A stretch of DNA of 64,000 nucleotides, from positions 9,708-73,707 of the IMG/VR virus record IMGVR_UViG_3300036795_000211; one strand, written 5' to 3'. Positions 7,238 through 21,389 of the stretch are shown in pieces. The position numbers were made by a program, and so were the translations under genes. Positions within the stretch are counted from its first letter, which is position 1; each line of letters begins with the position of its first letter. This DNA comes from a virus. Below the pieces are notes generated by a model. That model saw only the letters and a program-made list of their open reading frames with translations, was not told where the DNA came from and searched no databases.

Positions 7238-7275
7238 CCGGTTCCTCCTTTCCCTTCGTTGTTATCGAGTGGCGG

Positions 7276-7698
7276 TCAGAGCAGCGGACCGATTCGGGCC
7301 CGAGCCACCGTTGCTGCGCCGGCCACACCGAGAGGTTCGGTGCATCGGCCGACGACCGTGCCGAACACGTTCGCAGCGATCGTCTGGACCTGGCCAGTGG
7401 CATCTGCCGCCAGCAAGGCACCGAACGCCGTTGCGGTGTTGTACGTGACCCGGAGGTCGATCCCGTAGCCGACGGCCACGTAGTCCGGGTTCTGAGCGAT
7501 GTTCGCCGGGTTCTGGGCGTCCTGACTCGTCCGGACCCCCGCGTCATGCAGGGCAACGCCCACGCACGTTGCGGCGAGTGCGGTGCAGGTCTTAACCGCA
7601 CCACCGGTATCCGGCATCACCAGCTGGCTGCCCAGCACGGTCGAGATGACCTGATACGTGGTCGGACCCTGACGGACGTAAGGCACGAGGCCTGGCAT
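7276..7698 (-). CDS. Capsid decoration/cement protein
   Basis: 140 aa, Ala/Gly/Val-rich, VGVALHDA and GALLAADATG motifs; between scaffold and capsid. Confidence 0.7.
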   Translation of the reverse strand: MPGLVPYVRQGPTTYQVISTVLGSQLVMPDTGGAVKTCTALAATCVGVALHDAGVRTSQDAQNPANIAQNPDYVAVGYGIDLRVTYNTATAFGALLAADATGQVQTIAANVFGTVVGRCTEPLGVAGAATVARARIGPLL

Positions 7699-7756: not shown

Positions 7757-9004
7757 TTACAGGGCGAACGCCGACCGCGCCGCCTTCACGAAGTCGCGCG
7801 TTTCCTGGACTTCCTGCTCGCGCTCCTCCCGCTCTTCGTCCGGCTCGAGGCCGTTCCCGATGACGCCGCTCAGGTCGAGCAGCTTGATCTGCTTGCCGAT
7901 CTCGGTCAGCACGGTTCGCATGACCTGGCCGGCATCGATCTCGTCCCCGCCGGACAGTTCGACCACGTGGCCGGACCCTTCCAGCAGTGGCCGCGCCAGG
8001 TCCACGATCGCCGGGGGGATGCCCAGCGCGTTGGCGAACTGCGTCCGTTCGTTCTGGAACGCCTGCTCGTCGAGACCGGCCTGTACCGCGTCGAGGTGCT
8101 CACCCTGCTGCACGATCAGCGCGTTCGCGTTGGCCAGTTCCAGTGCCTGCCGACGTTGCGAAGCCGAAACGGTCGCAGGAACCCGATCGGTCGGGGCCAC
8201 TTCGTCCTCCTCCTCTTCGTCCTCATCGTCGTCGGTGTCCTCGTCCTCGACCATGTCGGCTTCGGCCTGCGCGATCAGCGCGTCGAGGTCCTCGTCGCTC
8301 AGCTCCGATTCGTCGTCGCTCTCACCGTCATCGTCGTCCTCGGTGAGTTCGTCGACAAGGCCTTCCAGGTCGTCATCCGACGCGTTGCGGGCCTTCTTCA
8401 GCAGCTCGAGGAGCTGACCCTTGTCTTCCAGCGTGAACGCCACCTTGTCTCCTCCTTCCCTTTCTCCGAACGTTGCATCGGAGAGGTCGAGAACTTCGAC
8501 CGTTCCGAGCTCGTTGCTCAGCGCGACGGGCACTTCGACTTCCTGCCACGTTCGCATTCCCGCGATGTGCGGGTCGAGCGTTCCCAGCACGTGCTGTAGT
8601 GCGGCCTTCCAGTGCTTTCCATCGGAACGCTCGTAGTCCTCATAGATCCTTGCGGAGACCCCGAGTTCGGGGTTGTCTCGCAGGAGTTCATCTCCCTTCC
8701 TCGTGGCCTCCAAGATCAGATCGAGACCGTCATTCGTCATCTCGACGCCGACGATCTTTCCCCGGGTCCGTTCCGGGTCGTTGTTGTGCTTGTTGTTCCC
8801 GTCGGCCAGCTGGAACGGTACCTGACCGAACGCCTTGTCCTTGAACGAACGGACGAGGTTCTGAAGGTAGTCCTTGTCGAACTTGAGCTGCTGCCCCTTG
8901 TAGGTGATCTCGCCGAGCGGCAGCAGCTGCGTACGCCACATCCGGCGACCAAGCGATACGGTACGCCGTTTGGAGCGCGGGGTGAGGAGTCCGTTTACCG
9001 TCAT
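7757..9004 (-). CDS. Capsid maturation protease fused to scaffold (Mu I-like)
   Basis: QLLPLGEITYKG..VPFQL..H..P..G.I..GL..GVSARI..L.HVLGTLDPHIAGM N-domain, then an acidic linker and helical scaffold. Confidence 0.8.
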   Translation of the reverse strand: MTVNGLLTPRSKRRTVSLGRRMWRTQLLPLGEITYKGQQLKFDKDYLQNLVRSFKDKAFGQVPFQLADGNNKHNNDPERTRGKIVGVEMTNDGLDLILEATRKGDELLRDNPELGVSARIYEDYERSDGKHWKAALQHVLGTLDPHIAGMRTWQEVEVPVALSNELGTVEVLDLSDATFGEREGGDKVAFTLEDKGQLLELLKKARNASDDDLEGLVDELTEDDDDGESDDESELSDEDLDALIAQAEADMVEDEDTDDDEDEEEEDEVAPTDRVPATVSASQRRQALELANANALIVQQGEHLDAVQAGLDEQAFQNERTQFANALGIPPAIVDLARPLLEGSGHVVELSGGDEIDAGQVMRTVLTEIGKQIKLLDLSGVIGNGLEPDEEREEREQEVQETRDFVKAARSAFAL

Positions 9005-11067
9005 GTCGCCTTCCTCGTGATCTTCTTCCCGGGTGCGAACTGTGGAATGGCGGTCCCGTGAAGGAGCCGGGCCAGTGCGATCTTGCGGGCCTCACCCTGC
9101 GACCATCCACGAGCTTCGAGAGCGGCGGCCAACGTCCGGAGCTGCCCGACCTTCGACACGGTGATACCGAGTCGTTCGGCGAGTGCGGCGTCCTTGGCTT
9201 GCTGCTTCTCGGAGGCGATAGCGTTTGCGCCACGGTTCTTGAACAGCGTCTGCTGCAGCGTCGGATGCTTCGAGGTCGCACCGGACGCCTTGGCCGCCTT
9301 GTTCTCCGCCTTACGTACCGTGCGTCCTGCGGTGCCCTTCGGAGGAACGGCTGCGCCTCGGGCCACGGACATCGACCGCTCATGCCCGATACCTTGCAGC
9401 TTCGCCTTGTCGTAGGCCCGCTTCTGGTGCGGCTTGAGCGCTGCGTACTCGGCCTGGTGATCGGAAATCGATTTGCCGGTTGACGGTGCGGAGGTCTTAC
9501 CTTCGGGGGTAGCCGTCCTACTGGTGCGGCGGCGTGACGTCCCGGGTGCCGCTCCCGTTCGTGTCACGCCGCCACTACCGCCCTCGCCCGCCCGGCGAGT
9601 CTTTCGGGATTGTCGTACTGCGCGCTCCGCCTTCAAGCGCTCCGGATGCCCCTGCGGATACTGCGCTCGAGCTGCCGTTCGGGCCTTCAGCAAGGTTGCG
9701 TGCTCCGGAGTCCCAACCGGAGTTGGGGTCGTTGCACCCGGGGTCTTAACGGTTGCCGTGTTTCCACCCGGGGTCTTTGTCGTAGCCGCCGGCTGCTTCG
9801 GCGCATTGACCACTGGCTTCTGCGTGGTCTGCTTCGTTGCGGCCATTCGATCAAGTGCGCCGCCGTGTGACATACCGCTCGCACGCAAGGCCTTGTACTG
9901 GGGGTTACCCTGCAGCTGCGTGAGCGTCATTCCGCCGACTCCGACCGGCTCGGAGGTATCCTCACCCCGCGCTTTCCGATCCAGTAGATCGTTCGTCTGC
10001 AACGTGCTGAGGGTCGACGCACGGTGCTTTCGACTCTCGATACCGTGATTCGACAGCCCACGGCGTTGCGAGATAACGGACTCGTGATCGGCGGCGTGGT
10101 CCTCGATGAGGAGCTGATGCGAACGTCCTTCGTGTCCGTGGGTAATCCCGTGCACGTCCGACAGATGCGCTATCAGCTTGAGTCGATCCTCGTTTGAACG
10201 GGAATGCGCCGGCGTGACCTTCTGACCGGACGGTGCGTACTTTGCGGCGGCTGCTGCCGTGTCCGTGGCGGAGTGCTCAGCGCCGGTCTTCGACGGGGTC
10301 TTCGTTCCGCCGCCCTTGGTCCCGTGCTGGTAATGCGAGACCATTCCGGCGTGAATCCGAATCGTTTGACCGGACTTCGCACCCTTCGTAACTGCGACGT
10401 TGAGGTGCTCGCCGTCCTTCGAAAGGACCGTACCTTCGTGAACACCCGAGGACTGCGGGAACCGAACCTTGGAGCCGGCAGCGATCTTCGGAAGGCCGGG
10501 ACCGCCGTGGTAAATCCAGCCGTGCGAATACCCCTTCGGACCGGTGAACTCGATGGCCTCTCGGCCTCCCGCGTACTCGGCGGGTGCCTTCACCGCGCTG
10601 GGCGGGTAGCCCTTGTTCGCCGCATAGCGCTTGCACGCGGACATTGCGAACTTCGTGACAGCGTCGCCGGTCTTGCCCTGGTTCTTCGCCATTGACACGG
10701 CACGCTTGTAGACCCGGTCCATCTCACCGGCGACCGGCTGGTCCGACAACTCCCAGACGAATTCGCCTTGGGCTGCGGCGAGCTCCAGCGTTGCCCGCAA
10801 GGCCGACGACATCGCCTTTGCGGTCTGCGTGTTATCCGCCCACGAGCCCTTGACGGTTGACCACGCTCCGAGCTCACGGGCGCGCTTCCGGATCAGCCGG
10901 CCCAGTGCGGGTCGCTTACCGGGTGCCGCCCTACCGACCGCCTGAATGGCCTTCTTCAGGTACGACCGATTCGGAATCGGATACGAGTCGTCCGGGAGTG
11001 CCTTGCCGGCCTTGGCCAGCTTTCGGCGCCCTGCCGCACGCTCCGGTGCGGGGGTCTTAACGGTCAC
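9001..11067 (-). CDS. Large basic multi-module head-associated protein (N-terminal DUF6582-like module; GPKGYSHGW and GHPERLKAE tags)
   Basis: RRKLAKAGKALPDDSYPIPN..LKKAIQAVGRA module; coupled to the protease gene; own promoter and RBS. Confidence 0.7.
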   Translation of the reverse strand: MTVKTPAPERAAGRRKLAKAGKALPDDSYPIPNRSYLKKAIQAVGRAAPGKRPALGRLIRKRARELGAWSTVKGSWADNTQTAKAMSSALRATLELAAAQGEFVWELSDQPVAGEMDRVYKRAVSMAKNQGKTGDAVTKFAMSACKRYAANKGYPPSAVKAPAEYAGGREAIEFTGPKGYSHGWIYHGGPGLPKIAAGSKVRFPQSSGVHEGTVLSKDGEHLNVAVTKGAKSGQTIRIHAGMVSHYQHGTKGGGTKTPSKTGAEHSATDTAAAAAKYAPSGQKVTPAHSRSNEDRLKLIAHLSDVHGITHGHEGRSHQLLIEDHAADHESVISQRRGLSNHGIESRKHRASTLSTLQTNDLLDRKARGEDTSEPVGVGGMTLTQLQGNPQYKALRASGMSHGGALDRMAATKQTTQKPVVNAPKQPAATTKTPGGNTATVKTPGATTPTPVGTPEHATLLKARTAARAQYPQGHPERLKAERAVRQSRKTRRAGEGGSGGVTRTGAAPGTSRRRTSRTATPEGKTSAPSTGKSISDHQAEYAALKPHQKRAYDKAKLQGIGHERSMSVARGAAVPPKGTAGRTVRKAENKAAKASGATSKHPTLQQTLFKNRGANAIASEKQQAKDAALAERLGITVSKVGQLRTLAAALEARGWSQGEARKIALARLLHGTAIPQFAPGKKITRKAT

Positions 11068-11194
11068 CGATTCACCTCCATTTCGGTTGAGACGAAAGCG
11101 ACCGAGAACCCGGTATGAATCGCTACCCTACTCGGCAGTGACAACCTGGCCCTAACGGTCAATGAGGTGAACCCTAACGGAGTCCACCTTGGAT

Positions 11195-11221
11195 ATACCC
11201 CTAAATGGTGCCCACTAAACC
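11195..11221 (-). promoter_or_regulatory. SigF/SigB-type late promoter GGTTT-N16-GGGTAT
   Basis: Exact fit to GGWWT-N16-GGGTAY, intergenic, upstream of the capsid operon. Confidence 0.7.
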
Positions 11222-11240
11222 GTTTTAACATCGCTGTAGT

Positions 11241-11600
11241 TTACGTGGGGTCAACGACAAACGGTCCGAATTGCGCCGTTACCGTCTTCCCGGCTGACGT
11301 TACGTCAATGCGCCACCAGGTCGACGCTGCAGTAGTCAGATCCGCATGCGGAATGCTAAACAGCGTGATTCCGTTCGCTAGCGGTGCCTGATTAGCACCG
11401 GCGTACGACTTGAACGACGTGTCCGAGTCCAGAACATCTCGTGAAGCCTTACGAATGAACGTACAAGTCTTCCCGGTGAGGTCCAGTGGCTGCTGCTTTC
11501 CGCCGACCAACGGAAGACTCGGATCCGTCAGTGCCGCTTGAATCGTTACGTCGTTGTTCTGACGTACCGAGATCGAGACCGGATCCATTTCGCCGGACAT
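11241..11600 (-). CDS. Ig-like / BppU-N-like virion accessory protein
   Basis: PLDLTGKTCTFIRK..GITLFSIPHADL..WWRIDVT pattern. Confidence 0.55.
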   Translation of the reverse strand: MSGEMDPVSISVRQNNDVTIQAALTDPSLPLVGGKQQPLDLTGKTCTFIRKASRDVLDSDTSFKSYAGANQAPLANGITLFSIPHADLTTAASTWWRIDVTSAGKTVTAQFGPFVVDPT

Positions 11601-13741
11601 TAGTCCTCCACTACTATCGTTACGTCGAACCCTAGCGGCTCGACGGTTCCCCCGTAGGTAACTACGGTAATCGTGACCCCGTAAACTATTGGCATTGCCG
11701 ATCCTTCCACCGTGTCCGGTTGGAGAACTATCGCATACCCGAGAACCACTATACTGGCTGCCAGGGCGTTTGTCGAAATCGTACAGCCAATATCCTCCGG
11801 CGGGGGAGGTATAATGGGCGCAATTGTCGGACCGGGAAGTTCAGTGGCACGCCGTTTACGCTGGAGCGACCGCCAGAAGCGCTGGGCCAGTCGCTTGACC
11901 ACTGCAACCGGAAGGGGCGGCGGCTTCGGAGGTGGCGACGGCACCCACGGAATCGTGATTCGCCTCTTAGGTAGTGACCGCCTCGACGCTCTCGGCTGTA
12001 CTACCGGCTCCGGTGCGAACGGGACTAGCTTACTGCTTCGGGCTCTTCGGGTTCGTCCGGCCTGACCCTTCCGGGTAGTCTGCGGGGCGTACGGCACAAC
12101 GGTGGCCCGTGGTTGTCCGGGAAGCTGCGGAGGTCGTATACGTCGAAGTAGTACAATCCGCCGCATTCGGTGCGTATCCGGAACGGTCGGGGCCACCGGT
12201 ACCGTGACGGGTGGAACCGGGGTCGTAGTTGCATTCGACTTCCTTCGATACCAGCGAGTTCGGATTCGAGTCGGTGCATACGGAGCAAACGCCGCAACCG
12301 AAGGGGTAGTTGTCGGGCCCGGAAGCTGATGAATGTTCGAGCGGCGAATCCGAATTCGCCAAGTACGGTTTCGCGGCTCGTACGGAGCCGGTTGCGCCGG
12401 GGTGACCACTTGCGGAGCCGGAGGTGCCACTACGCTCTGACTTGGCTTGCGATAACGCGTTGTCCGTCTGTTCGGCTGTATCGGAATAGTCGGCTCCGGA
12501 CCGAATTGAGCTGGTGCAGCATACCGTGAACGTCGGAACCGGAATACTCGACGATACAACGACAAAGCCGGAAGTGGCTGGAATACGGCTCCGATTCCAC
12601 CGGGTATCTGCTGCACTGCCCCGCGCTGTCGCCTATACCGGGTACGCCGTACGCTAGGGGTCGCGGGAGGCGGAGCCGCACTAGTAGGCAACGGTGTCGC
12701 GTGCAGGATTCGTCGACCGCGAAGGGCCCAGCGTCGCGGTATCGGAACCGGCGGAATCGGCGGTAGGGGAACTATCACCGTCGGAACCAGCGTACCGCTC
12801 CCGTGCGAGCGCCGATAGCGGAGCTTCGAACGACTCGGCTGCGCAACCGTCTCGATTGCAGCCGGGACCTGTGTCGCACTACCCTTTCGTAGCCTACGCA
12901 TAGCTGGCCGGGTAGTTCGACCCAGCTGCGGAGGCGGAAATACGACGACCGGAGGTATCACCGCTGGAACGAACGCAGTAGCGCGTCGAACAGTTCTTGG
13001 TCGGTACGGACGCGATCTTGGCGCGACGGGTACGATACCGGCGGTGACCGCGATCACCTTGGACGGGACCGGAACCGCCCTGCGATAACCTCGTACCGAT
13101 CTCCGATTAAGCCGAGGCTGTCCCGGCGGGAGACCAAACGGAACGCGGGCAATGTAAACGCCCGCAAAGCCGTCGGTAAACGTCCCGGTATTCTTCAACG
13201 TCCAGACCAGTCCGAGACCTGATGTGTCCGTTATCGTTGCCGCACTGCTTGCGGCAACTACCAGAGCGACGAGTAGGCTACCCGGCGGCGGCGTGAACGC
13301 TGCTGTCGTAGCCGAGTTCGCATTGGCAGTGGCGAGCGCCGGCGTAGAGCCGTCCAGCGTAATCGTGCCATTCGGCAAGACCTCGAACAGACCTACGCCG
13401 ACGTTAAGAAAGGTGTTCGATGCTCCGATCGTTACCGATCCCGGCGTTCCAGTAGCCGAAGTCGCCTTTACAGCGCCGAGCTGGAAGCTGTTCTGTGCGG
13501 CCTGCGCGATAATCGTACTACTTGCCGTAGCAAGCAGCGTGGACGCTGACCCGCCTACGGCACCGTAGACCACCGAGCCGGTTACCGTAGTAGTGATTGC
13601 TTTCGAGTAGGCCGAGCTCGACTGGTTAGTGGTACTCGCTGCCGGCTGCGCCAGGGCCGTATTTCTGAGAACCTCGACCAGGATACTCGTGCCAGTCGTA
13701 ATAACCGTGCCGGCTTGCGTGGCTTTAACCGTAAACGCCAC
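11600..13741 (-). CDS. 713 aa protein: beta-rich N-domain, about 14 Arg/Pro-rich repeats, hydrophobic C-terminus
   Basis: Long ORF coupled to the downstream gene; repeat structure visible in translation. Confidence 0.7.
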   Translation of the reverse strand: MAFTVKATQAGTVITTGTSILVEVLRNTALAQPAASTTNQSSSAYSKAITTTVTGSVVYGAVGGSASTLLATASSTIIAQAAQNSFQLGAVKATSATGTPGSVTIGASNTFLNVGVGLFEVLPNGTITLDGSTPALATANANSATTAAFTPPPGSLLVALVVAASSAATITDTSGLGLVWTLKNTGTFTDGFAGVYIARVPFGLPPGQPRLNRRSVRGYRRAVPVPSKVIAVTAGIVPVAPRSRPYRPRTVRRATAFVPAVIPPVVVFPPPQLGRTTRPAMRRLRKGSATQVPAAIETVAQPSRSKLRYRRSHGSGTLVPTVIVPLPPIPPVPIPRRWALRGRRILHATPLPTSAAPPPATPSVRRTRYRRQRGAVQQIPGGIGAVFQPLPALSLYRRVFRFRRSRYAAPAQFGPEPTIPIQPNRRTTRYRKPSQSVVAPPAPQVVTPAQPAPYEPRNRTWRIRIRRSNIHQLPGPTTTPSVAAFAPYAPTRIRTRWYRRKSNATTTPVPPVTVPVAPTVPDTHRMRRIVLLRRIRPPQLPGQPRATVVPYAPQTTRKGQAGRTRRARSSKLVPFAPEPVVQPRASRRSLPKRRITIPWVPSPPPKPPPLPVAVVKRLAQRFWRSLQRKRRATELPGPTIAPIIPPPPEDIGCTISTNALAASIVVLGYAIVLQPDTVEGSAMPIVYGVTITVVTYGGTVEPLGFDVTIVVED

Positions 13742-13764
13742 TGCGCACCCAGCTCTCTCCGAAT

Positions 13765-13797
13765 GGGCCGGCGGGTCCGCATACTACCCGCCGGCCC
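13765..13797 (-). terminator. 12-bp GC-rich stem-loop (terminator or mRNA stabiliser)
   Basis: gggccggcgggt / acccgccggccc inverted repeat, intergenic. Confidence 0.55.
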
Positions 13798-13811
13798 CGC
13801 TCCCGTTCGAC

Positions 13812-14327
13812 CTACTCGTCGGTCTCCACCGTGACCACGAACAGATGCGAGGCCGGGAGTGCGTTACCGATGTTGACCAGGGCCAGTCCGTTCGCCGTTC
13901 CCTGGTCCACGATGAACATGTCGTCCGGGAATTCGAACGGCACGTCCCAGCCGACCTGCGTGTTGAACGTCAGCTTGTGCAGTGCGGTTGCGCCGATCGT
14001 CGGACCGGTCGTACCTGCGGTCGTTGCCGTGGTTACGTCCAGCCCGGTGATCACCGAAGCCGGTCCGCGCTGATCCGTGTTCTGGAACGTGGTCGTACCG
14101 AATCCGGTACCGACCACTCGAACCGTCTGACGGTACAGCGCGATCGTGTGCTGGTCCGAGGTGACGGAACCCGCCGGTCCCCGAACGCCGAGGATCAGCC
14201 GGCGCAGCTTGACGTTCGATGATGCCCCCGCGACAATCGCCGCGAAGTACCCGTTGAACGTGGTCGTTGCCGGCGTCCCAGCGAGCTGTGCGGACTGCGA
14301 TTCGAGCGACGCTACGAAGCGACCCAT
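13812..14327 (-). CDS. Beta-rich virion accessory protein
   Basis: 171 aa, Thr/Gly/Val-rich, RBS present, high GC3. Confidence 0.6.
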   Translation of the reverse strand: MGRFVASLESQSAQLAGTPATTTFNGYFAAIVAGASSNVKLRRLILGVRGPAGSVTSDQHTIALYRQTVRVVGTGFGTTTFQNTDQRGPASVITGLDVTTATTAGTTGPTIGATALHKLTFNTQVGWDVPFEFPDDMFIVDQGTANGLALVNIGNALPASHLFVVTVETDE

Positions 14328-14608
14328 TACTCGCTACCTCCCTTCCGGATCGCGAGAGCGGCCTGGAGCCGTTCCCGATTATCGCTGCCCACGACCTGCT
14401 CGCCGGAGTCGTGGAGCTCGAGGAGTCGGGCGGCGTGGTCGGCCTCCCGCATCTCCTCATCGGAGAGCTGGTCGATAAGGCTCTCGAGCGTCTTCACGTG
14501 CGACTCAATCTGCTCGAGTCGCGTTCGCAAGGCCGGTCGCGTGTACTTCGCACGCAGAGTCTCAACGAGTCCGTCGAGTACGCTGCGGTCCGACGTTTCG
14601 TCCGCCAC
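14327..14608 (-). CDS. Hypothetical helical protein
   Basis: Start moved to GTG 14608 after GGGAAAGGGAA RBS; coupled to next gene. Confidence 0.55.
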   Translation of the reverse strand: MADETSDRSVLDGLVETLRAKYTRPALRTRLEQIESHVKTLESLIDQLSDEEMREADHAARLLELHDSGEQVVGSDNRERLQAALAIRKGGSE

Positions 14609-14732
14609 TTCCCTTTCCCTTCTTCGGTTCGGGTTCGGTGTAGATAATCGGAACACCGTCAGCGTTCAACGTGATAACGGTATCCCCCGGCTCGGGTACT
14701 TCATCTTCCGGAGGCGGATCCTGCTTGGTCAT
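14562..14732 (-). CDS. 56 aa ORF coupled to the nuclease-like gene (not in ORF track)
   Basis: ATG overlaps the upstream TGA (ATGA); MTKQDPPPEDEVPEPGDTVITLNADGVPIIY... Confidence 0.45.
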   Translation of the reverse strand: MTKQDPPPEDEVPEPGDTVITLNADGVPIIYTEPEPKKGKGSGGRNVGPQRTRRTR

Positions 14733-15352
14733 ACTGCCACCGCCCTAGTGTGTCGTTTGTCCCAGTGGCCCTTCCGTTGTTGCGCCTGCCGGAAGTCCTT
14801 TTGCGTATACGTATACGACCCGATGTGTCGCATCGTCTTGACGCGCTTCGAGGTGAACTGCTCGTTCACGTATACGTGCACTTCGCCGGTGACCTGATCG
14901 ACCACCTGCACCACGATCAACGGCATCCAGCCGTTCTTTGCGGTCTCCGCCTTCTTACGGAGCTGCTCTTCGGTCTTCATCGCGATTCGCTGGTTCTTGG
15001 CGTGGACGTTTAGCGTCTTCAGCTCTCCGCCGTACTTGTGGTCGAGTCGGAAGTCGAGTGGCGTATTTCGTGCCGTTGTCTGCCCCGCCTTACGAACCCC
15101 GGCTCCGGAGATCTCGATATACGGATGCCCGAAGTGCTTCTCGAGCAGGGCCTTACCCTTTGCTGCGAACAACGCTTCGAACGTATCACCGATCTCGGTC
15201 TTGCCCATCGCCGCACCAGTAGACGGATGCGTAAAACGAGAGGCCGTCTGACCTGGATCGCTAGCAAGCGACCCGACACCCTTCTTCGTAAACTCACCGC
15301 CGCCGTGGTGATGCCCCGGAATGCGTGGGTGCAGATCCTCTTCCCACGTCAC
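14729..15352 (-). CDS. PD-(D/E)XK nuclease-like protein with N-terminal WEEDLHPR..GGEF tag
   Basis: GDTFE..PLDF..GGELKT restriction-endonuclease-fold motif order. Confidence 0.6.
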   Translation of the reverse strand: MTWEEDLHPRIPGHHHGGGEFTKKGVGSLASDPGQTASRFTHPSTGAAMGKTEIGDTFEALFAAKGKALLEKHFGHPYIEISGAGVRKAGQTTARNTPLDFRLDHKYGGELKTLNVHAKNQRIAMKTEEQLRKKAETAKNGWMPLIVVQVVDQVTGEVHVYVNEQFTSKRVKTMRHIGSYTYTQKDFRQAQQRKGHWDKRHTRAVAV

Positions 15353-16290
15353 AACGCACGCGCCCGAAGAACCAAAGCGGATGCCCTGCCCCTGAGTTGC
15401 CGAACCTGCACTTGTAGCTGCCCGATCTGGTTCCTCAAGCTATTCGCCTTAGTTGTTGCGGCACTTGACGCTGTTGAGGTGGCCTTTTTTGCCGTTGTCT
15501 TTCCGGCCTTCTTGGCCACAGTGGTGGCTGAGGCCTTAGCCTTCGTAGCAGTCTTTCCCTTGGTCGTCGTCCCGGTTGCTTTCGACCCGCCGGTCTTGGT
15601 CGACTTTCCGGAGTTCGTAACCCCCTTGAGCTCCTTCTGCAAGCCGCCGATCTTTACCTCGAGTGCGTTAGCCTGCTGCCGAAAGCCTTTCGCCCTCGTT
15701 AGCAACTGCGCCTTCTTGGCGCCCTTCGGACCGCGGGAGACCGGAGCCGTCTTTTGCCCCGGAGCCTTTTTCGCAGCAGGTGCCTTTGCCGCTGACGCAC
15801 CGCCGCTGCTTCCGGACTTTGGTGCGAACTGCCCGCCGGTAGCGCTACCGGCTCCGACGTGCATCGTGTTGAACAGCTCGATCGGTTGCGCCAAAACGTC
15901 GTCTCGTGACATAGCCTTCGCTCTCGCCGCGGTTGCCTTGAGTTCGGCGATAGCCGCTGCAGCCGCCGCCTTTACTTCGGGATGCTTGCTCGTTGCCGCA
16001 AGTCGCTTGCACGCGTTGATCGCGGTGGCCGTTGCTCGACCCTCCGCCATACCGCCACGCATCAACGCGTTACGCATGTTCTCGATGTAGTTAGGTAGCT
16101 TCGCACCCTTCATGTGGTACAAGCCGGGTCCGCCGGGCTTGCCGCGTGGCGCGGGGGTAGCCACGAGTCGAGGCGTTTCCGCCGACAACGAGATACCCTT
16201 GTGCTTCCGAATAAGCCGCATTAGCAGCTGCGTATGGGCATCCGGCTTCGGATCATGCGCATACGAGGAGTCACTGAGTTGCGTTGTCAC
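15349..16290 (-). CDS. Basic Lys/Ala-rich head-associated protein
   Basis: LPNYIENMRNALMRGG helical module; FNTMH..GGQF tag; H1-like K/A/T tract; coiled coil. Confidence 0.6.
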   Translation of the reverse strand: MTTQLSDSSYAHDPKPDAHTQLLMRLIRKHKGISLSAETPRLVATPAPRGKPGGPGLYHMKGAKLPNYIENMRNALMRGGMAEGRATATAINACKRLAATSKHPEVKAAAAAAIAELKATAARAKAMSRDDVLAQPIELFNTMHVGAGSATGGQFAPKSGSSGGASAAKAPAAKKAPGQKTAPVSRGPKGAKKAQLLTRAKGFRQQANALEVKIGGLQKELKGVTNSGKSTKTGGSKATGTTTKGKTATKAKASATTVAKKAGKTTAKKATSTASSAATTKANSLRNQIGQLQVQVRQLRGRASALVLRARAL

Positions 16291-18389
16291 GACTTCTTGA
16301 TACCTCCAAGATCGTACTCCTGCGGCATCATCTTCAGCTTTGCGTACTCCGCGTACGCTCTAGCCGCTGCCCGCGGATTCGAATTCGCCGTTGCCTCGGT
16401 CCACAGCTCGGCCATTAGCTCGCTCGGCGATTGAGATGCGTATTCCGAGATGTTCGCCTTAATCGCCGGCGCATTCGCCTCGACCCACTTCTGCAGCGTC
16501 CCCCGGTTTATCAGTGCGTCCGCGCGATCGACACTGTCCTGCGTCATTCCGGCGAACACTTTGTCGATCTCCGCCGTCATCTGCGGACGATTGGCCTTTA
16601 GCGCCTCGTACGGCGCACGCATTTCGGCCACCGTGGTATGCGACAACTCCGGTCGGGTTGCGCCGATCGAATCAGCTATCGTATTCCACAGTTCCTGCGT
16701 AAAGCCGCCTTGCGGAAGGTGACGATGTACGCCGTGTCCGATCTCGTGGGTGAAGTTCGACTGAAAGCGGCCGACCTTTTCGTTGGTCGGTACGTGAAAT
16801 CCGGAGGACTCCTCGTCGCCCTTCCCCCGAAGGGTGTGCAGCTTCGGATGCAGCGTTATCTCGCCGCCGGGTCCGTGCGTCCCCGCCGTATATGCGCCGG
16901 GGCGACTCTTCGCAGTTTCCGGATCAACGGTGCTCTGCGGCTTTTCAACGGTGACGTGCGTGGCGGAAACAACATGCGGAGCGTGCTTCGACTGAATTTC
17001 GAGAACCTTCTCGATCTTCTGCTTGAAGCGTACCTTCTCGCCGGGTGAGTATAGGAACGTACTCACCGTAGGATCGGACTCGTTTATCGTTACACCGCGA
17101 CTCTTTACCGGTTCCGGTGCAGGCGGAAGTCCGGCCCGCTGTAGGTCCGCGTTGTACCGTGCTCGCTCCTCCGGATTTAGCCGGGACGCCACCTTTTCCG
17201 TTAGCTTTTCGTTCGCCGCTCGGGCACGAGTGTTGTAATCCGCTATTGCTCCCGCGCTACCCTGCTTGTCGTTCGGTAGGGTTAGCGATACCAGCTTACC
17301 GTTCTCCTGCTGACGCTCTACTACGAAGCCATTTTCCTCGAGCTTCGCCGCGTACGCCGTTAGATTGTTGTGTACCCGATCCGCGGTAGACGAATTGCGG
17401 CTGCCCAACGAGCTACCGGTGTAGTGCTCAATTCGCACCCCGTTGTCACCGGCGGATACTTCGTGTCCCGGATCGTAATTGCGCCAGCCCTTGACGGACG
17501 TCGAATGGCTCTTCACGGCCGCGAATCCGGACGAGCTTAGCGCAGAACGCGCTCGTCGCGCATTGACTTCGGCTGCTACGCGACCCTTTCCCTTCTCCAC
17601 GGCTTGCACGTGCGCCGTCAAGGCAGTGTACTGCGAATCACCGCCGCCGAGGTAGATCTCCTTGCTGTTCCCGCTAGTGAGGAACGAGCCACCGGAGGAC
17701 TTGTTCGTGGTAACGGCACCGATGTGCTTGTCGTCATGCCGAAAAGTGGTGACCCAGTCCTTGTGCTGCGTCGGAACGACACCACGACGCTGCTCCCGTA
17801 GATTCGGATACGAGTGTCCGGTACGCTCAATCGGTTCGGAGGTCGTTACCTCGGAAGGGTGTATTCCGCCCTTGCGGCGGCGTGAGCTCCTCGGTACCCG
17901 CGGGGCCTTGACCGCGGGAGGCGAAGCCACCTGGAGGTCCTCGCGATTGGCTACCTCGGCGTGGACTTCCTTCCAGAATTCCGTCCGATGCGCTGACCCC
18001 GGGTGATCCTCGCTGAGTCCGCGATCATTCGCGTTCTGCATCGCACTAGCCACGGCGTCATCGTATGCCGCGGTTTTCGGGAACGCCGATACCTTTCGAC
18101 GCCACTCCGATTCCGTACCACCGAGACCGACCGGGGATTCACCGGGTGTCGTTTCCATCTTCGGAGCGGCTTCTTGACCCGGCTCGACCGACTTCGTGTG
18201 CATTCCGAGCTTGCGCGACTTGCGTACTGCGTTCTCGGCCTTTAGCCGTTCAGGGTGACCCGCGGGATGCGCCGCTCGAGCCTCAGTCCGAGCCGTTAGC
18301 AGCTCGGAGTGTGGCGTAACGCCGGGTATTCCGTGGAATACCCAGCCGTGGGAGTACCCTTTCGGTCCCACAAGGTCGAGCGTGCGCAT
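16287..18389 (-). CDS. 700 aa protein with N-terminal GPKGYSHGW / GHPERLKAE tags and C-terminal zincin metallopeptidase-like domain
   Basis: HEIGH (HExxH) plus downstream SEYASQSPSELMAE third-ligand motif. Confidence 0.7.
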   Translation of the reverse strand: MRTLDLVGPKGYSHGWVFHGIPGVTPHSELLTARTEARAAHPAGHPERLKAENAVRKSRKLGMHTKSVEPGQEAAPKMETTPGESPVGLGGTESEWRRKVSAFPKTAAYDDAVASAMQNANDRGLSEDHPGSAHRTEFWKEVHAEVANREDLQVASPPAVKAPRVPRSSRRRKGGIHPSEVTTSEPIERTGHSYPNLREQRRGVVPTQHKDWVTTFRHDDKHIGAVTTNKSSGGSFLTSGNSKEIYLGGGDSQYTALTAHVQAVEKGKGRVAAEVNARRARSALSSSGFAAVKSHSTSVKGWRNYDPGHEVSAGDNGVRIEHYTGSSLGSRNSSTADRVHNNLTAYAAKLEENGFVVERQQENGKLVSLTLPNDKQGSAGAIADYNTRARAANEKLTEKVASRLNPEERARYNADLQRAGLPPAPEPVKSRGVTINESDPTVSTFLYSPGEKVRFKQKIEKVLEIQSKHAPHVVSATHVTVEKPQSTVDPETAKSRPGAYTAGTHGPGGEITLHPKLHTLRGKGDEESSGFHVPTNEKVGRFQSNFTHEIGHGVHRHLPQGGFTQELWNTIADSIGATRPELSHTTVAEMRAPYEALKANRPQMTAEIDKVFAGMTQDSVDRADALINRGTLQKWVEANAPAIKANISEYASQSPSELMAELWTEATANSNPRAAARAYAEYAKLKMMPQEYDLGGIKKS

Positions 18390-18401
18390 CCCGCGCCCTT
18401 T

Positions 18402-19235
18402 CTACTGAACGCCGTTACGAGCGGCCCAACGCGTCAGTGCCTGGTACGCACCCAGCACATCGGCATCGACCGAAGGACTGGGAGTCGGTGCCGGCGGGGC
18501 CGAGGTCAGTGCCTTCGGAACGTTTACGTCGCCGTTCTCGGAAAGCAGTCGCGCCCAGGTGTCCCACGACATGTAACCGCGGCCGTCCACGCCCCAGCTC
18601 GCCCCCCACGAGTTCTGGAAGCCGACGAGCTGCGGCTCGATCACGATCTCATCGAAGCACATCTCGTGTCCACCGGCCACTCCGGAACCCGGCGAGATCG
18701 AAATGACTCCCTTCGAGTTCGGAGTGAACATCGACTCGTAGAAGTTGAAGCCGGAGATGGTCGGCTGCTTCTCCAGCGCTCCGAGTGCCGTGCTAAGCGA
18801 CAGCGCGTGAAGGTACCCGGAGATGTACCCGTCGTTCTTCGCTGCCTTGCAGGCCGACGTTCCGTCCGATCCGGTGTCCTCGGAACCCGGAGCCGTGGGA
18901 TTCTTCCAGTTGTACGTTCCCGGGAACGAGTCGAGCGCCGTGGCCTCGCCGTAGAACTCCTGTGCGAGGTTCTCGCCTCGGGTCTGCATTGCCTGCTGGA
19001 GGATCGCCGTAAGCGCGTCCCAGAGCGGACCGGATGCACAGGCACCGCCGATAGCGTTTCCGGTACACGCACCGGTCTGAAGCTGGTCGTAAATCGGAAT
19101 GTGCCGCGGCCACTTCACCGGCGTGTACGTCGCCTCGCGTGTTGCGAGGAAGTGCAGGTTACGGGAGTCGAACGCGAAGTGGCGACCCAGTCTCGGGTCA
19201 CGAACGAGCGGATATCGGGCAGTTGAGATCGTCAT
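18402..19235 (-). CDS. Papain-like (C1) cysteine peptidase
   Basis: DQLQTGACTGNA (Gln/Cys), GGHEM (His), QNSWGASWG.DG (Asn); ATG 19235 overlaps the MuF stop. Confidence 0.85.
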   Translation of the reverse strand: MTISTARYPLVRDPRLGRHFAFDSRNLHFLATREATYTPVKWPRHIPIYDQLQTGACTGNAIGGACASGPLWDALTAILQQAMQTRGENLAQEFYGEATALDSFPGTYNWKNPTAPGSEDTGSDGTSACKAAKNDGYISGYLHALSLSTALGALEKQPTISGFNFYESMFTPNSKGVISISPGSGVAGGHEMCFDEIVIEPQLVGFQNSWGASWGVDGRGYMSWDTWARLLSENGDVNVPKALTSAPPAPTPSPSVDADVLGAYQALTRWAARNGVQ

Positions 19236-19900
19236 GCGTTGCCTCCTGTTGGTAGCATTCGAGCACCCCGATGCGGAGCACCGGGGAAACACCGACAGTG
19301 AACGTGGACCGTTCCCGGCCAGCCGATCTTCGGCGGGATTAGCGCACTGAAATTCTTGCCATTAGCGTTCCGACACTCCGCCGTCGTTCGGCTATCGTTC
19401 TTGCTATACCACCCGAGAACCGTACCGTACTGCTGTCCTAGCGCGTCGATCGTGGACGCCGCTATTATCCGTTGTGCCGACGCTTGAATGTGCTGCCCGT
19501 AAAACCGTCGCTCCGCATACCGAGCAGTGTTTGCCGCTACGTTTGGGTTCTCACCGTGCGCGCGGGCTTCTGCAATTTCCCGACGCAAACGTGTAAGCGC
19601 ATTCACGAGGTACGCGGAGCGACGGAGCTCGTTCTCGCGGATCATTTCGGCTTGTGCGGCTCCGACACCTTGCATCTGCGGCATCGGGAACTCGTCGATT
19701 ATCGCTAGTGCGATCTGCAGTGCGGACATTCCGACCTTGTCGGCGACCCGAATACCGAGCAACCGCGAGAGCGCGGGAAGGGCAGCCGTTGCACTAAGGA
19801 ACATCGAACCGCCGAGGATTAGCGCTACGGTTCCGACCAGTGCGGTATTGCTTTGCTGCGGCGGAATCTGCGTTTGCGTGTTAGGCTGCACGCTGTCCAC
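19232..19900 (-). CDS. MuF-like head morphogenesis protein (short form)
   Basis: GWYSKNDSRTTAECRNANG..PGTVHVHCRC motif; directly after portal. Confidence 0.85.
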   Translation of the reverse strand: MDSVQPNTQTQIPPQQSNTALVGTVALILGGSMFLSATAALPALSRLLGIRVADKVGMSALQIALAIIDEFPMPQMQGVGAAQAEMIRENELRRSAYLVNALTRLRREIAEARAHGENPNVAANTARYAERRFYGQHIQASAQRIIAASTIDALGQQYGTVLGWYSKNDSRTTAECRNANGKNFSALIPPKIGWPGTVHVHCRCFPGAPHRGARMLPTGGNA

Positions 19901-21389
19901 CTCCGGCGGCTGCGGCTAGCTTCGATGCAGCATCTGCGGCCCCCGCGATACGTGCGGCACCTTGACCGATCGGCGAGGCGCCCATCGCACTTGCTTGCGC
20001 TGCCTGCTGTGCTCGGTAATCGGCAGCGTGGGACAGGATCGTCACTACCTTGTCCTGCGGAAGGTTGAAGATGGTCGACACCTTTTCGGCCACCAGGTCA
20101 AGGAACTCCGGCGGGATGTTCAACTTCGGAGCAGCCATTCCGGCCTGCAGCAATCCGACGATCTGTGCCGAATCGGTCTGCGACAACGGTGAGGAGACCA
20201 AGCGGGGCACCTTCGCATTCGCACCCCACTTGTTTAGGATGCACAACGGTGCCGTAACCTCGGACGTAAACTGGTCGCAGATCTCCGTTTTCACGGCCTC
20301 GCGGTGCTTGAGGAAGAAGTCGGACTGCGACTCGGACAACGCATAGGACCCGCGACCCAGCGCTGCCGCATTACCGAGCTCCAAGAACCCGGCTAGAACG
20401 CTTCGACTCTGATAGCTCTGGAGGAACTGCAGCGCGGCTTGAAACTGCTGCGCGCCCTGACCCTGCGAGGCGATTACGTCGAATAGCTTTCCACCTTGCG
20501 GCGGACGCTGAAAGCCCGCCACTCCGGAGGACTTCATCGACGCGATCGTTTCGGCTATCTCATTCGCCGAGGTCGGGTCCGGTCCGTAGGCCGCAATCTT
20601 CGGAAGCGATTGCTGCTCGAGGAACTGGAACCACAGGAACAGCAGCTTCTGCTTCTGCTTGTAGCACCAGTACGTTACGTCCATGTCGGAGATACCCGTC
20701 AATGGCTGACGGTGCATTCCGTGAATGAACACGAACGCTCTCGGCTTGTAGATCCGAATGTAACCGTCCCAGTTGTTTCCGAATCGCTCCTTGGCTTTCG
20801 GGTTCGTTGAGAACCACCACGCACGCTGACGGAATCCGGTCATCTTTGCCGTGTGTTCGTCCCGCATCACCTCACACGTCTCCGGAGGACGCCAGTTCAG
20901 CGACTCGAGCTTGACGACATTACCTTCGGGGTTCGTCCACTCCTTCTCGAAGAACGCCTTTCGGTGGTACGTACCTCCGGACATCTGACCGATGATCGTC
21001 GACATATTCGGAGTGATACCGCCGGCCTCGACCGGACTCTCGAGCTGCTCCTGCACCAGATCGAGCTCTCCGGTGTCACCCTTCTGTCCTTCGAAGCTGT
21101 ACGTAGCTGCACGTATCGGCAGGGTCAGTGCTTGCTCGATCATGATTGCGTCGCCGTCTCGACGAAGCATTTCGTCGAGGTCCCGGATCTTCCATTCGCC
21201 GGTCTCGAATACCGAACCGTCCTGGAACGAGACGAACATCCGGGTGTAGAGGTCGAACGCCGTACCCGATTCACCCTGCAGTAGCCGACGCTTCTGCGCC
21301 TTCGTAAGCTTCGGAAGGGAATCGATAACGTCCTTCGGAGCGGGAGGCGGCTTCTTCCGGGCTAGCCCGTTTCCGGCGATCGTAGCCAT
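19881..21389 (-). CDS. Portal protein (Mu gp29/DUF935-like)
   Basis: 502 aa after TerL; KAFFEKEW, PLTGIS and GSYALSESQSDFF motifs. Confidence 0.85.
   Translation of the reverse strand: MATIAGNGLARKKPPPAPKDVIDSLPKLTKAQKRRLLQGESGTAFDLYTRMFVSFQDGSVFETGEWKIRDLDEMLRRDGDAIMIEQALTLPIRAATYSFEGQKGDTGELDLVQEQLESPVEAGGITPNMSTIIGQMSGGTYHRKAFFEKEWTNPEGNVVKLESLNWRPPETCEVMRDEHTAKMTGFRQRAWWFSTNPKAKERFGNNWDGYIRIYKPRAFVFIHGMHRQPLTGISDMDVTYWCYKQKQKLLFLWFQFLEQQSLPKIAAYGPDPTSANEIAETIASMKSSGVAGFQRPPQGGKLFDVIASQGQGAQQFQAALQFLQSYQSRSVLAGFLELGNAAALGRGSYALSESQSDFFLKHREAVKTEICDQFTSEVTAPLCILNKWGANAKVPRLVSSPLSQTDSAQIVGLLQAGMAAPKLNIPPEFLDLVAEKVSTIFNLPQDKVVTILSHAADYRAQQAAQASAMGASPIGQGAARIAGAADAASKLAAAAGGGQRAA

Follow-up and report, generated by a model that had tools for sequence, protein, structure and literature searches.

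A candidate head-cargo module with header-marked units between the MuF and prohead-protease genes of a phage genome

Phage-type polyvalent proteins carry ADP-ribosyltransferase (ART), NUDIX, 2H, zincin and papain-like peptidase domains fused to MuF or portal proteins and are encoded with the packaging genes, and processing of the multidomain chain by embedded zincins has been proposed (Iyer, Burroughs, Anand, de Souza and Aravind 2017, PMC5512222). In the MuF polymorphic toxins of temperate phages, MuF itself carries variable C-terminal effector domains (Jamet et al. 2017, PMC5576092). Stand-alone cargo is exemplified by the T4 internal proteins, which are encoded with the head genes and bear a short N-terminal capsid-targeting sequence (CTS) beside a prohead-protease site (PMC3012670, PMC9958956), and by the Dar system of phage P1, where head loading of several stand-alone anti-defence proteins is tied to morphogenesis (PMC9024508, PMC12810830); the Dar protein DdrB has a C-terminal zincin (PMC5512222). 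The ejection proteins of phiKZ/SPN3US-like jumbo phages are processed by the prohead protease at one short consensus, with several matching motifs within the propeptides, and the protease also cuts itself (PMC10052503, PMC7411985). In polymorphic toxins, a short invariant motif or pre-toxin domain borders the constant delivery part and the swappable effector cassettes (Zhang et al. 2012, PMC3482391).

The window analysed here, a stretch of 64,000 nucleotides, belongs to a virus record of 73.7 kb that is complete and has direct terminal repeats, and all genes of its head module lie on the minus strand:

21389-23164, minus strand: TerL
19881-21389, minus strand: Mu-type portal (context; PF06074, 1e-28)
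19232-19900, minus strand: short stand-alone MuF, 222 aa (weak PF04233 match at aa 157-204, E 8e-4; phrog_115, minor head protein)
18402-19235, minus strand: papain-like (C1) cysteine peptidase (phrog_16701, peptidase, 2e-34)
16287-18389, minus strand: p700, with a 6-residue leader, header 1, tag 2, variable middle and C-terminal HEIGH zincin
15349-16290, minus strand: p313, with a conserved N-module, site and header 2, Lys/Ala/Thr-rich basic tail and coiled coil; pI 11.3
14729-15352, minus strand: p207, with an N-terminal HPR-type header, disordered linker and PD-(D/E)XK nuclease-like core (aa ~41-207)
14327-14656, minus strand: p109, untagged
13812-14327, minus strand: p171, untagged
11600-13741, minus strand: p713, Arg-rich, untagged
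11241-11600, minus strand: p119, untagged (phrog_1084)
9001-11067, minus strand: p688, with an N-module (SYPI motif), ACKR helix module, site and header 1, SH3-like stretch, tag 2 and basic C-terminus
7757-9004, minus strand: p415, prohead protease (aa ~8-144) fused to an acidic helical scaffold
6239-7698, minus strand: p140 (scaffold/decoration-like, phrog_673) and the major capsid protein (context)
6239-7237, minus strand: major capsid protein (MCP)

The most fitting reading of the ~10.2 kb gap from MuF to p415 is a head-cargo protein of the polyvalent kind whose parts are split among separate genes. Related uncultured phages have giant polyvalent proteins fused to portal or MuF, and the gap would hold their stand-alone-gene counterpart. 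The domain repertoire is that of the polyvalent proteins, but their domains are fused and those of the window are separate genes. MuF ends 18 residues past HVHCRC with no effector fused, and homologues of this MuF adjoin the portal in 16 loci. Unlike the MuF toxins, the window has a toxin-free MuF and effectors in genes of their own, no tyrosine integrase turned up in the complete genome, and no conserved immunity gene was seen.

The enzymatic assignments of the original prediction hold. The C1 peptidase gene, whose start, probably the ATG at 19235, shares ATGA with the MuF stop codon, has a Pfam C1 match of only E 0.1, and its active-site Q/C and His/Asn motifs align with PDB 3ois (E 0.013); the header tag was not found in its sequence, and it has no counterpart in the relative L017. 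The zincin of p700 contains the HEIGH motif, and its nearest cluster in the atlas is Pro-Pro endopeptidase-like (score 0.96). In the nuclease core of p207, D100, E110 and K112 are invariant, Hjc resolvases are the top Foldseek matches (2e-3, prob 1.0), and the AF2 model has a pLDDT of ~90 in the core and <50 for aa 8-37. The protease of p415 adopts the fold of T4 gp21 (Foldseek to 5jbl, 2.5e-4, prob 1.0, herpesvirus proteases next) with H73, S117 and H138 invariant; p415 of the window falls below the Pfam and PHROG thresholds, PF10123 (Mu-like_Pro) is detected in 2 of 18 relatives, and hhalign with Mu gpI is weak (probability 3.8%). Where two very basic proteins had been claimed in the interval, three are counted: p313 (net +42), p688 (+62) and p713 (+74).

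Short elements recur within these proteins:

18330-18383, minus strand: p700 aa 3-20, EL-type putative protease site and header 1 (TLDL followed by VGPKGYSHGWVFHG)
18210-18311, minus strand: tag 2 in p700, aa 27-60 (HSELLTARTEARAAHPAGHPERLKAENAVRKSRK)
16290-17018, minus strand: zincin metallopeptidase domain, p700 aa ~458-700 (HEIGH at 16734-16748, ELMAE at 16407-16421)
15817-15885, minus strand: p313 aa 136-158, EL-type putative site and degenerate header 2 (PIEL followed by FNTMHVGAGSATGGQFAPK)
15281-15346, minus strand: HPR-type header of p207, aa 3-24
10504-10557, minus strand: p688 aa 171-188, EL-type putative site and header 1 (AIEF followed by TGPKGYSHGWIYHG)
9601-9702, minus strand: tag 2 in p688, aa 456-489
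8477-8494, 8129-8146, 7949-7966 and 7865-7882, minus strand: four conserved phi-phi-[DE]-L-[SA]-[GDN] sites in p415, at aa 171, 287, 347 and 375

All three tags that had been proposed are real. The degenerate DNA pattern of GPKGYxHGW (header 1) matches exactly 10516-10542 and 18342-18368 and nowhere else in the whole genome (0 expected, 100 shuffles); the p700 copy follows an ATG at 18389 with an SD-like AAAGGG 7-12 nt upstream. Tag 2 (LLxARTxARAxxPxGHPERLKAE) joins p688 aa 452-511 to p700 aa 23-85 at E 2e-11, and the p700 copy is 85% identical to that of L017, compared with ~50-57% for flanking genes. The third codon base is shared at only 10 of the 26 residues identical between the two in-genome copies, and such synonymous differences indicate selection on the peptide. 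The third motif, in p207 aa 3-24 and p313 aa 136-158, belongs to a family F-[ND]-[PE]-x-x-H...G-[QEKR]-F (header 2) that recurs in 33 of 35 pattern matches.

Header 1 extends beyond this phage. A profile search returned 488 protein clusters at E<=1e-3, all metagenomic and often with 2-3 copies per protein, and 77 stretches of viral contigs match its DNA pattern; no cultured phage or isolate among those searched carries the tag, and no Pfam family covers it. The seven pattern matches in 596 Gb of genomes, of which only two contain the extended motif, are about the yield of chance, since roughly eight are expected by our own estimate from pattern degeneracy. Header 1 lies 20-35 residues upstream of effector domains (ARTs, NUDIX, 2H, zincin, nuclease) and is preceded by a portal, MuF or protease-scaffold domain or, in stand-alone proteins, occupies the very N-terminus. 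It is always followed by at least 93 residues, and copies are at least 80 residues apart (median 228). At least two copies occur in 64 of the 150 best profile matches, and in 51 of the 86 single-copy proteins the tag is inside the first 60 residues. Thirty-five loci could be placed through a homologue of the portal, MuF, protease or MCP of the window, and in every one the tags fall in the interval from MuF to the protease. The tags recur, with clear domain shuffling, on many unrelated effector domains, which supports the portable cargo tags originally proposed. That headers of this kind also join such enzymes to portal and MuF proteins elsewhere suggests a reusable code for capsid loading.

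The proposal of tagged separate effector genes stands in part: such genes exist, but the tag is not specific to them, and portal- or MuF-containing polypeptides carry two to four copies of header 1, one just upstream of each effector domain. With header positions in brackets, P0004 reads Portal-[700]-Arr(721)-MuF-[1706]-ART(1729)-NUDIX and P0009 reads Portal-[749]-ART-PolyVal(782)-MuF-NUDIX-[1408]-[1781]-ART, both textbook polyvalent proteins; L010 is Portal-MuF(to 1049)-[1058]-ART(1089), and L004, MuF-[header]-ART, uses MuF as a carrier as the MuF toxins do. The window's own nuclease, zincin and p313 domains are found elsewhere fused behind headers: L061 joins Portal-[762, GPKGY header] to the p207 nuclease domain in one polypeptide, P0053, P0038 and L016 have HExxH modules homologous to the p700 zincin after a header or between headers, and in L017 and L087 the p700 orthologue is a single gene (tags, X, p313-like part) without the zincin. 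An insert led by a header occupies precisely the protease/scaffold junction of L076. With these cargo domains joined covalently to portal or MuF elsewhere, delivery in the virion is reasonably inferred.

The residues before the headers fall into two classes: among 270 distinct pre-header octamers, 141 read [AP][DE]-phi-x-K-V, 122 phi-phi-[ED]-L-V and 7 neither. The protease-scaffold proteins of the EL lineage contain 77 EL-type sites against 18 expected (K-type 15 against 10), those of the K lineage 48 K-type sites against 16 (EL-type 12 against 8), and the cross-lineage control gives only 1.5-fold enrichment, all counts being taken over homologous and hence not independent proteins. In the window, all six matches to the site pattern, which was defined after data inspection, fall in p415 (four), p700 and p688, with 0.37 expected. 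Because each class matches sites repeated in its own lineage's protease-scaffold protein, the segment before the tag probably serves as a site for the prohead protease. Sites 171 and 375 of p415 lie at order-disorder borders of the model. Amphipathic scaffold helices may mimic such site patterns, the low cross-lineage enrichment notwithstanding. The link between prohead-protease-type sites and polyvalent-type cargo is new here.

It is rather likely that the interval is a head-cargo module whose header-marked units are cut by p415. A unit would comprise a carrier or start codon, a short site similar to the prohead-protease sites of that lineage, an invariant header (VGPKGYxHGW(I/V)xVG, or FNPxH..GGQF / HPR..GxF), a linker of 10-30 residues and a cargo domain, here the zincin (p700), the basic histone-H1-like tail (p313), the PD-(D/E)XK nuclease (p207) or basic p688. 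The units would be taken into the procapsid alongside portal, MuF and p415, the protease-scaffold protein, which would cut at phi-phi-[D/E]-L immediately before the header, putatively between L6 and V7 (p700), F174 and T175 (p688) and L139 and F140 (p313). The header would be retained as the new N-terminus of each cargo domain, and the cargo would exit along with the DNA.

The likeness to the T4 internal proteins lies in stand-alone cargo, a short peptide by a protease site and a gp21-fold protease, but the order is reversed: the T4 CTS is upstream of the cut and removed, whereas the header is downstream of the putative cut, and, unlike the CTS, also internal and multi-copy. As in phiKZ/SPN3US-like phages, many head proteins would share one short consensus; there, however, the propeptides are long and N-terminal, no common header is retained, and both the protease motif and the phage lineage are different, and cleavage here is putative. 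The Dar proteins are likewise stand-alone and head-loaded, with a DdrB zincin placed C-terminally as in p700, but no common header motif is known for them, nor any sequence relation to the window's proteins. With polymorphic toxins the likeness is a short invariant motif bordering swappable cassettes. VENN in CdiA is such a boundary motif, with a suggested role in the recombination of cassettes as DNA. These toxins, however, are secreted by bacteria, and a role via DNA contrasts with the two in-genome copies here, which differ at synonymous sites.

The header could instead be a capsid-targeting address that recognizes the scaffold-protease, MuF, portal or inner capsid wall as its procapsid partner and so brings in stand-alone proteins in trans, like encapsulin cargo-loading peptides or the T4 CTS, a possibility that we regard as rather doubtful. 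The p700 leader has only six residues, and in 14 of 87 header ORFs an in-frame stop within 40 codons makes an upstream carrier impossible, so cleavage there would gain little; this speaks for a function of the header as such. GPKGYxHGW also stays invariant across lineages differing in pre-header sites and portal families, as expected of a binding motif, and in many relatives a header gene is directly upstream of the protease-scaffold gene. Two to four copies within portal or MuF fusions would nevertheless be redundant and argue against a simple address, the header would be kept rather than removed, and no conserved partner was found: the p313 N-module, present in 25 loci, is absent from one complete header-bearing genome.

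Less probable still, the tags would serve only to link or cap small folded domains, for instance as the opening strand of an SH3-like unit, and would have spread by cassette shuffling with no part in processing or packaging. SH3-like stretches (GxxVxHPxHGxGTV; GSKVRF..EGTVL) do follow many headers, and polyvalent proteins typically show mosaic networks of common modules (PMC5512222), a text in which the word 'linker' is absent. Nine near-invariant residues adjoin wholly unrelated downstream domains, however, the strict pre-header dichotomy matches lineage-specific scaffold sites, and the header 2 region is disordered in the p207 model. Moreover, the p313 junction aligns with IEL/IDL followed by FNPYHAPPG..GGQFTT in homologues, yet L025 has VDL followed by VGPKGYIHGW there, so that headers 1 and 2 are interchangeable at one aligned junction.

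That the interval holds late-expressed accessory genes (host takeover, lysis, exclusion) of the head operon and no virion components is very improbable, given the conserved MuF-protease position and the nuclease, zincin and p313 domains joined elsewhere to portal, MuF or header chains, even though neither header nor head-protein fusion was found for pep_296, p109, p171, p713 and p119. Family searches with the four untagged proteins at 11241-14656 gave nothing except the PHROG of p119; the p713 N-domain and p119 are conserved in L017.

The virus record is complete, with direct terminal repeats, and 73.7 kb long. The window covers most of it, and the head genes are arranged as follows (proteins are named by their length in amino acids):

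21389-23164, minus strand: TerL
19881-21389, minus strand: Mu-type portal (PF06074, 1e-28)
19232-19900, minus strand: short MuF (222 aa)
about 10.2 kb, minus strand: interval from MuF to p415, with ten ORFs
7757-9004, minus strand: putative protease-scaffold protein p415, followed by p140
6239-7237, minus strand: major capsid protein, with adaptor and tail genes next

The interval had been described as encoding a papain peptidase, a zincin, a nuclease-like protein and two very basic proteins, and this description largely holds. The peptidase pep_296, whose gene follows MuF, is papain-like: it matches phrog_16701 at 2e-34, and its active-site stretches YDQLQTGACTGNA and GGHE...NSWGASWG, which contain the Gln/Cys and His/Asn motifs, align to the cysteine protease 3ois in the PDB, the match to Pfam C1 being below threshold (E 0.1). 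The only candidate found for a fused form of pep_296 is its sole long homologue, P0183 (626 aa), which bears Hint/intein domains (PF07591 and PF14890) and was set aside. The HEIGH zincin of p700 is supported by an Atlas match and by homologous modules in other proteins; p700 used as a query for related loci found no relatives. The PD-(D/E)XK fold of p207 (14729-15352) is supported by residues D100, E110, and K112, which are invariant in 26 sequences, and by an AF2 model with a core pLDDT of about 90, whose best fold matches include Hjc resolvases, RecU, and HincII; a sequence search of the PDB gave no significant match, with one at E 1.3. Directly after the p207 gene lies p109 (14327-14656), a small acidic helical ORF without homologues in the fetched loci, whose product could be an inhibitor or a chaperone. 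The basic proteins are indeed very basic, and number three (p313, p688, and p713) rather than two. The largest, p713 (11600-13741; 713 aa, pI 12, net charge +74), consists of a beta-rich N-domain followed by Arg clusters with Pro-rich linkers between them, and the N-domain alone is conserved in the related locus L017. At most one catalytic domain is recognisable in each window gene.

The peptide GPKGYxHGW (header 1), originally noted at 10516-10542 and 18342-18368, is found at these two places and nowhere else in the whole genome; they are the sole matches to a degenerate DNA pattern, which gave 0 matches in 100 shuffles. The in-genome copies of header 1 and of a second shared peptide, tag 2, differ at most synonymous positions, indicating that the peptides are under selection and that neither a recent duplication nor a DNA recombination joint explains the copies. 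Its recurrence in sequence databases shows header 1 to be a module header of wide distribution. The DNA pattern matches 77 stretches among viral contigs and 7 in 596 Gb of prokaryote genomes; 2 of the latter, on Streptosporangiaceae and Mycobacterium MAG contigs, have the extended motif, and the other 5 look like chance, which calibrates the pattern. A 41-column profile recovers 488 clusters (E<=1e-3) among 1.84 billion representatives, and all ten of those looked up are metagenomic only. No description of header 1 was found in Pfam, PHROGs, or the searched literature, which likewise gave nothing relevant on the HPR motif, and isolate phages showed no match, by DNA or by protein, to the region, p700, the header peptide, an HPR peptide, or the N-module of p313; the portal-MuF fusion of Arthrobacter phage Sonali ends right after HPRCRC, without a header.

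Among the best 150 proteins of the profile search, 64 carry at least two copies of header 1, the copies being spaced by at least 80 residues (median 228), and the last copy is never followed by fewer than 93 residues; among the 86 single-copy proteins, 51 have a header that starts no later than residue 60. A variant, VGPEGYIHG[FY]ICVRPPCG, in which two conserved Cys replace W..VG, is found in P0009, P0038, P0063, P0071, P0113, and P0124, usually as a later copy in large polyvalent proteins. A self-cleaving motif was considered and rejected, as the residues adjoining the header include no nucleophile (Ser, Thr, Cys, Asn, or Asp) that is conserved. Within the window, pep_296, p109, p171, p713, and p119 have no header.

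The original prediction proposed that the tags, if they address separate effectors to the prohead, should recur on diverse effector domains in the head interval, and header 1 is indeed shuffled among diverse domains. In 35 of the 35 loci with a placeable homologue of the window's portal, MuF, protease, or MCP, headers occupy the MuF-to-protease interval on the same strand. A Pfam tally over 71 header proteins includes portal (9), MuF (4), several ART families, 2H, NUDIX, Zeta toxin, and PI3/4-kinase-like domains, and per-protein maps place the header 20–35 residues before the next enzymatic domain, often directly after MuF. Representative orders, with residue positions, are:

P0004: portal, header (700), Arr (721), MuF, header (1706), ART (1729), NUDIX
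P0009: portal, header (749), ART-PolyVal (782), MuF, NUDIX, header (1408), header (1781), ART
L010: portal, MuF (to 1049), header (1058), ART (1089)
L061: portal (134-515), header (762), p207-type nuclease (791-940)

Zincins of the p700 type likewise stand behind or between headers in P0053, P0038, and L016. From these portal and MuF fusions of the same domains, we infer that the window proteins with such fused counterparts would be packaged and delivered with the DNA; that they are non-virion proteins is less likely. In L017 and L087 a single gene holds header 1, tag 2, a spacer, and a p313-like protein, so that the p700/p313 pair looks like a gene of this type split by a zincin-bearing insert. 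The N-module of p688 (aa 25-115; window 10723-10995; ALPDDSYPIP...LKKAIQAVGRA) recurs at aa ~1241-1325 of gp84, a hypothetical 1,534-aa protein without header tags from the head module of Microbacterium jumbo phages, e.g., phage Pumpernickel.

Immediately ahead of the header stand residues that resemble prohead-protease sites. The 270 distinct octamers from this position comprise 141 of the form [AP][DE]-phi-x-K-V (K class), 122 of the form phi-phi-[ED]-L-V (EL class), and 7 that fit neither. The EL class corresponds to the lineage of the window, with a Mu-type portal and a p415-type protease, and its pattern occurs 6 times in the 15 head proteins of the window against 0.37 expected, all in p415, p700, and p688. 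In phages of the K class the protease-scaffold protein belongs to another family (phrog_80, phrog_21715), whose sites include ADLEKG and PDLVKG. When sites are scored at positions -6 to -2 only, with header-adjacent sites masked, EL-type sites number 77 in the protease proteins of the EL lineage, against 18 expected, and K-type sites 15, against 10; in those of the K lineage, K-type sites number 48, against 16 expected, and EL-type sites 12, against 8, these being post hoc statistics on related, phylogenetically non-independent proteins. Such reciprocal enrichment is what lineage-specific protease sites would give.

By its predicted structure, p415 is a prohead protease fused to a scaffold. 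The model of its N-terminal domain matches T4 gp21 (5jbl) in Foldseek (E 2.5e-4, prob 1.0, TM 0.55 on the target), the next matches being herpesvirus proteases (assemblins), and H73, S117, and H138, candidates for the catalytic His and Ser, are invariant in sequence across 18 homologues. At the sequence level, p415 itself does not match PF10123 (Mu-like_Pro), which 2 of the 18 homologues match (best 4.6e-5); hhalign relates it weakly to Mu gpI (probability 3.8%), and a PDB sequence search found no match. Outside the protease domain the protein is acidic and helical, and its homologues have conserved EL-form sites at four positions: aa 171, where protease and scaffold join, and aa 287, 347, and 375. 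The homologue in L076 (5036-6640, minus strand) contains a header-led insert of 120 residues, beginning VDLAGPKGYVHGW, exactly at the protease/scaffold junction, and in L044 and L082 a header lies inside the N-terminal part of the K-lineage protease protein.

The motif originally noted in p207 and p313 is real and constitutes a second header family (header 2; FNPxH..GGQF or HPR..GxF). Leaders of p207 homologues read [FW]DExxHPR..GGGEF, FNPxExRDxxGxW, or EHVRTxxGAxxF, and the leader stretch of p207 is disordered in the AF2 model. The public gene call of p207 starts at Met49 (159 aa, P0153), so the HPR header is cut off; it is kept in homologues of 207–212 aa at 65–87% identity. In the p313 family, an N-module is followed by IEL/IDL|FNPYHAPPG..GGQFTT, which is degenerate in the window protein (PIEL|FNTMHVG..GGQF), and at the aligned position L025 has VDL|VGPKGYIHGW, so that headers 1 and 2 are interchangeable at this junction. 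A scan for FNP[YN]H[AS]PxG gave 35 matches, preceded by phi-[ED]-L or x-R, with the GQF extension in 33 of the 35. The form FNPNHAPxG..GGQF after x-R (AER|F, VRR|F) lies near the N-terminus of proteins of 170–600 aa in L097, L099, L102, L103, L105, and others, and the preceding x-R hints at a further protease specificity, the third, in which P1 would be basic. The p313 N-module itself (aa 33-125; window 15916-16194) occurs in 25 loci and gave nothing in the Atlas; it is preceded by phi-[ED]-L-S-A and includes GKPGGPGLYxVKG, which may be a third header variant. The module as an obligatory header receptor was rejected, as one complete header-bearing genome is without it. Tag 2 (LLxART...GHPERLKAE) is a genuine module common to p688 and p700 (E 2e-11), but not a widespread tag: its 12 stretches are all close relatives except for one partial match, and they always occupy the same two places, one directly behind header 1 in the gene that comes first after MuF, the other within the p688-like gene or at its end.

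These observations are probably best accounted for if the MuF-protease interval corresponds to a polyvalent head-cargo protein distributed over separate genes. The cargo unit would run from a carrier or start through a protease site, the header, and a linker to the cargo; p415 would cleave just ahead of the header, which would be kept as the N-terminus of the cargo. A broader proposal, which is possible but doubtful, is that a modular packaging code uses GPKGYxHGW and FNPxH..GGQF/HPR..GxF interchangeably as universal headers, which, once exposed by the protease, retain or order the cargo or export it via portal and tail into the host, and load carrier-less proteins in trans; any domain behind a header would then become a capsid-delivered protein. 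It is rather unlikely that the header is simply an address for capsid loading. In favour of an address role, the header is invariant across lineages that differ in their sites and portals, and carrier-less proteins have it at their extreme N-terminus (the p700 leader has 6 residues and a good SD upstream, and 14 of 87 ORFs have an in-frame stop within 40 codons). Against a simple address, several copies lie inside portal and MuF fusions, and the header is downstream of the putative cut. A role as a structural linker is less likely.

The window resembles several known systems in part. As in polyvalent proteins, its genes lie among packaging genes, with TerL, portal, and MuF upstream and protease and MCP downstream, and include a zincin (HEIGH of p700) and a papain-like peptidase (pep_296). 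Header-bearing relatives such as P0004 and P0009 qualify as polyvalent proteins, with at least two effector or enzymatic domains per polypeptide (PMC5512222), whereas window genes have at most one catalytic domain each (Iyer et al. 2017). Similarly, header relatives with MuF fusions fit MuF polymorphic toxins (PMC5576092), unlike the window MuF, which has 222 aa, ends 18 residues past HVHCRC, and has no toxin fused (Jamet et al. 2017). Such toxins have a cognate immunity gene directly downstream; in the window, the gene after nuclease p207 is that of the acidic p109. As a search with PF00589 also found no tyrosine integrase in the complete genome, the window belongs to neither class as defined. 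The nearest systems in functioning are the T4 internal proteins and the ejection proteins of phiKZ and SPN3US, both of them substrates of the prohead protease (PMC3012670, PMC10052503). In those phages the conserved element is removed; in T4 the capsid-targeting sequence lies upstream of the cut and is lost on maturation, whereas the header here is downstream of the putative site and would be retained. Its internal and multi-copy placement also differs from that of encapsulin cargo-loading peptides.

The sequence grammar is present in at least 488 protein clusters. From it one would predict where cargo begins and ends, what two prohead-protease lineages are likely to cleave, and which orphan head-operon genes encode injected effectors; it would also unite giant polyvalent proteins and operons of small separate genes in a single system with two forms. 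Only in a few model phages (T4, P1, phiKZ-like) is it understood how capsid-riding proteins are chosen. If the header suffices for loading or delivery, it would provide a compact tool to package chosen proteins into phage particles and a query with which new anti-defence effectors could be sought in metagenomes. The host probably belongs to the Actinomycetota, based on the two MAG matches and partial modules in Microbacterium and Arthrobacter phages, and one header-bearing contig is classed as a provirus.
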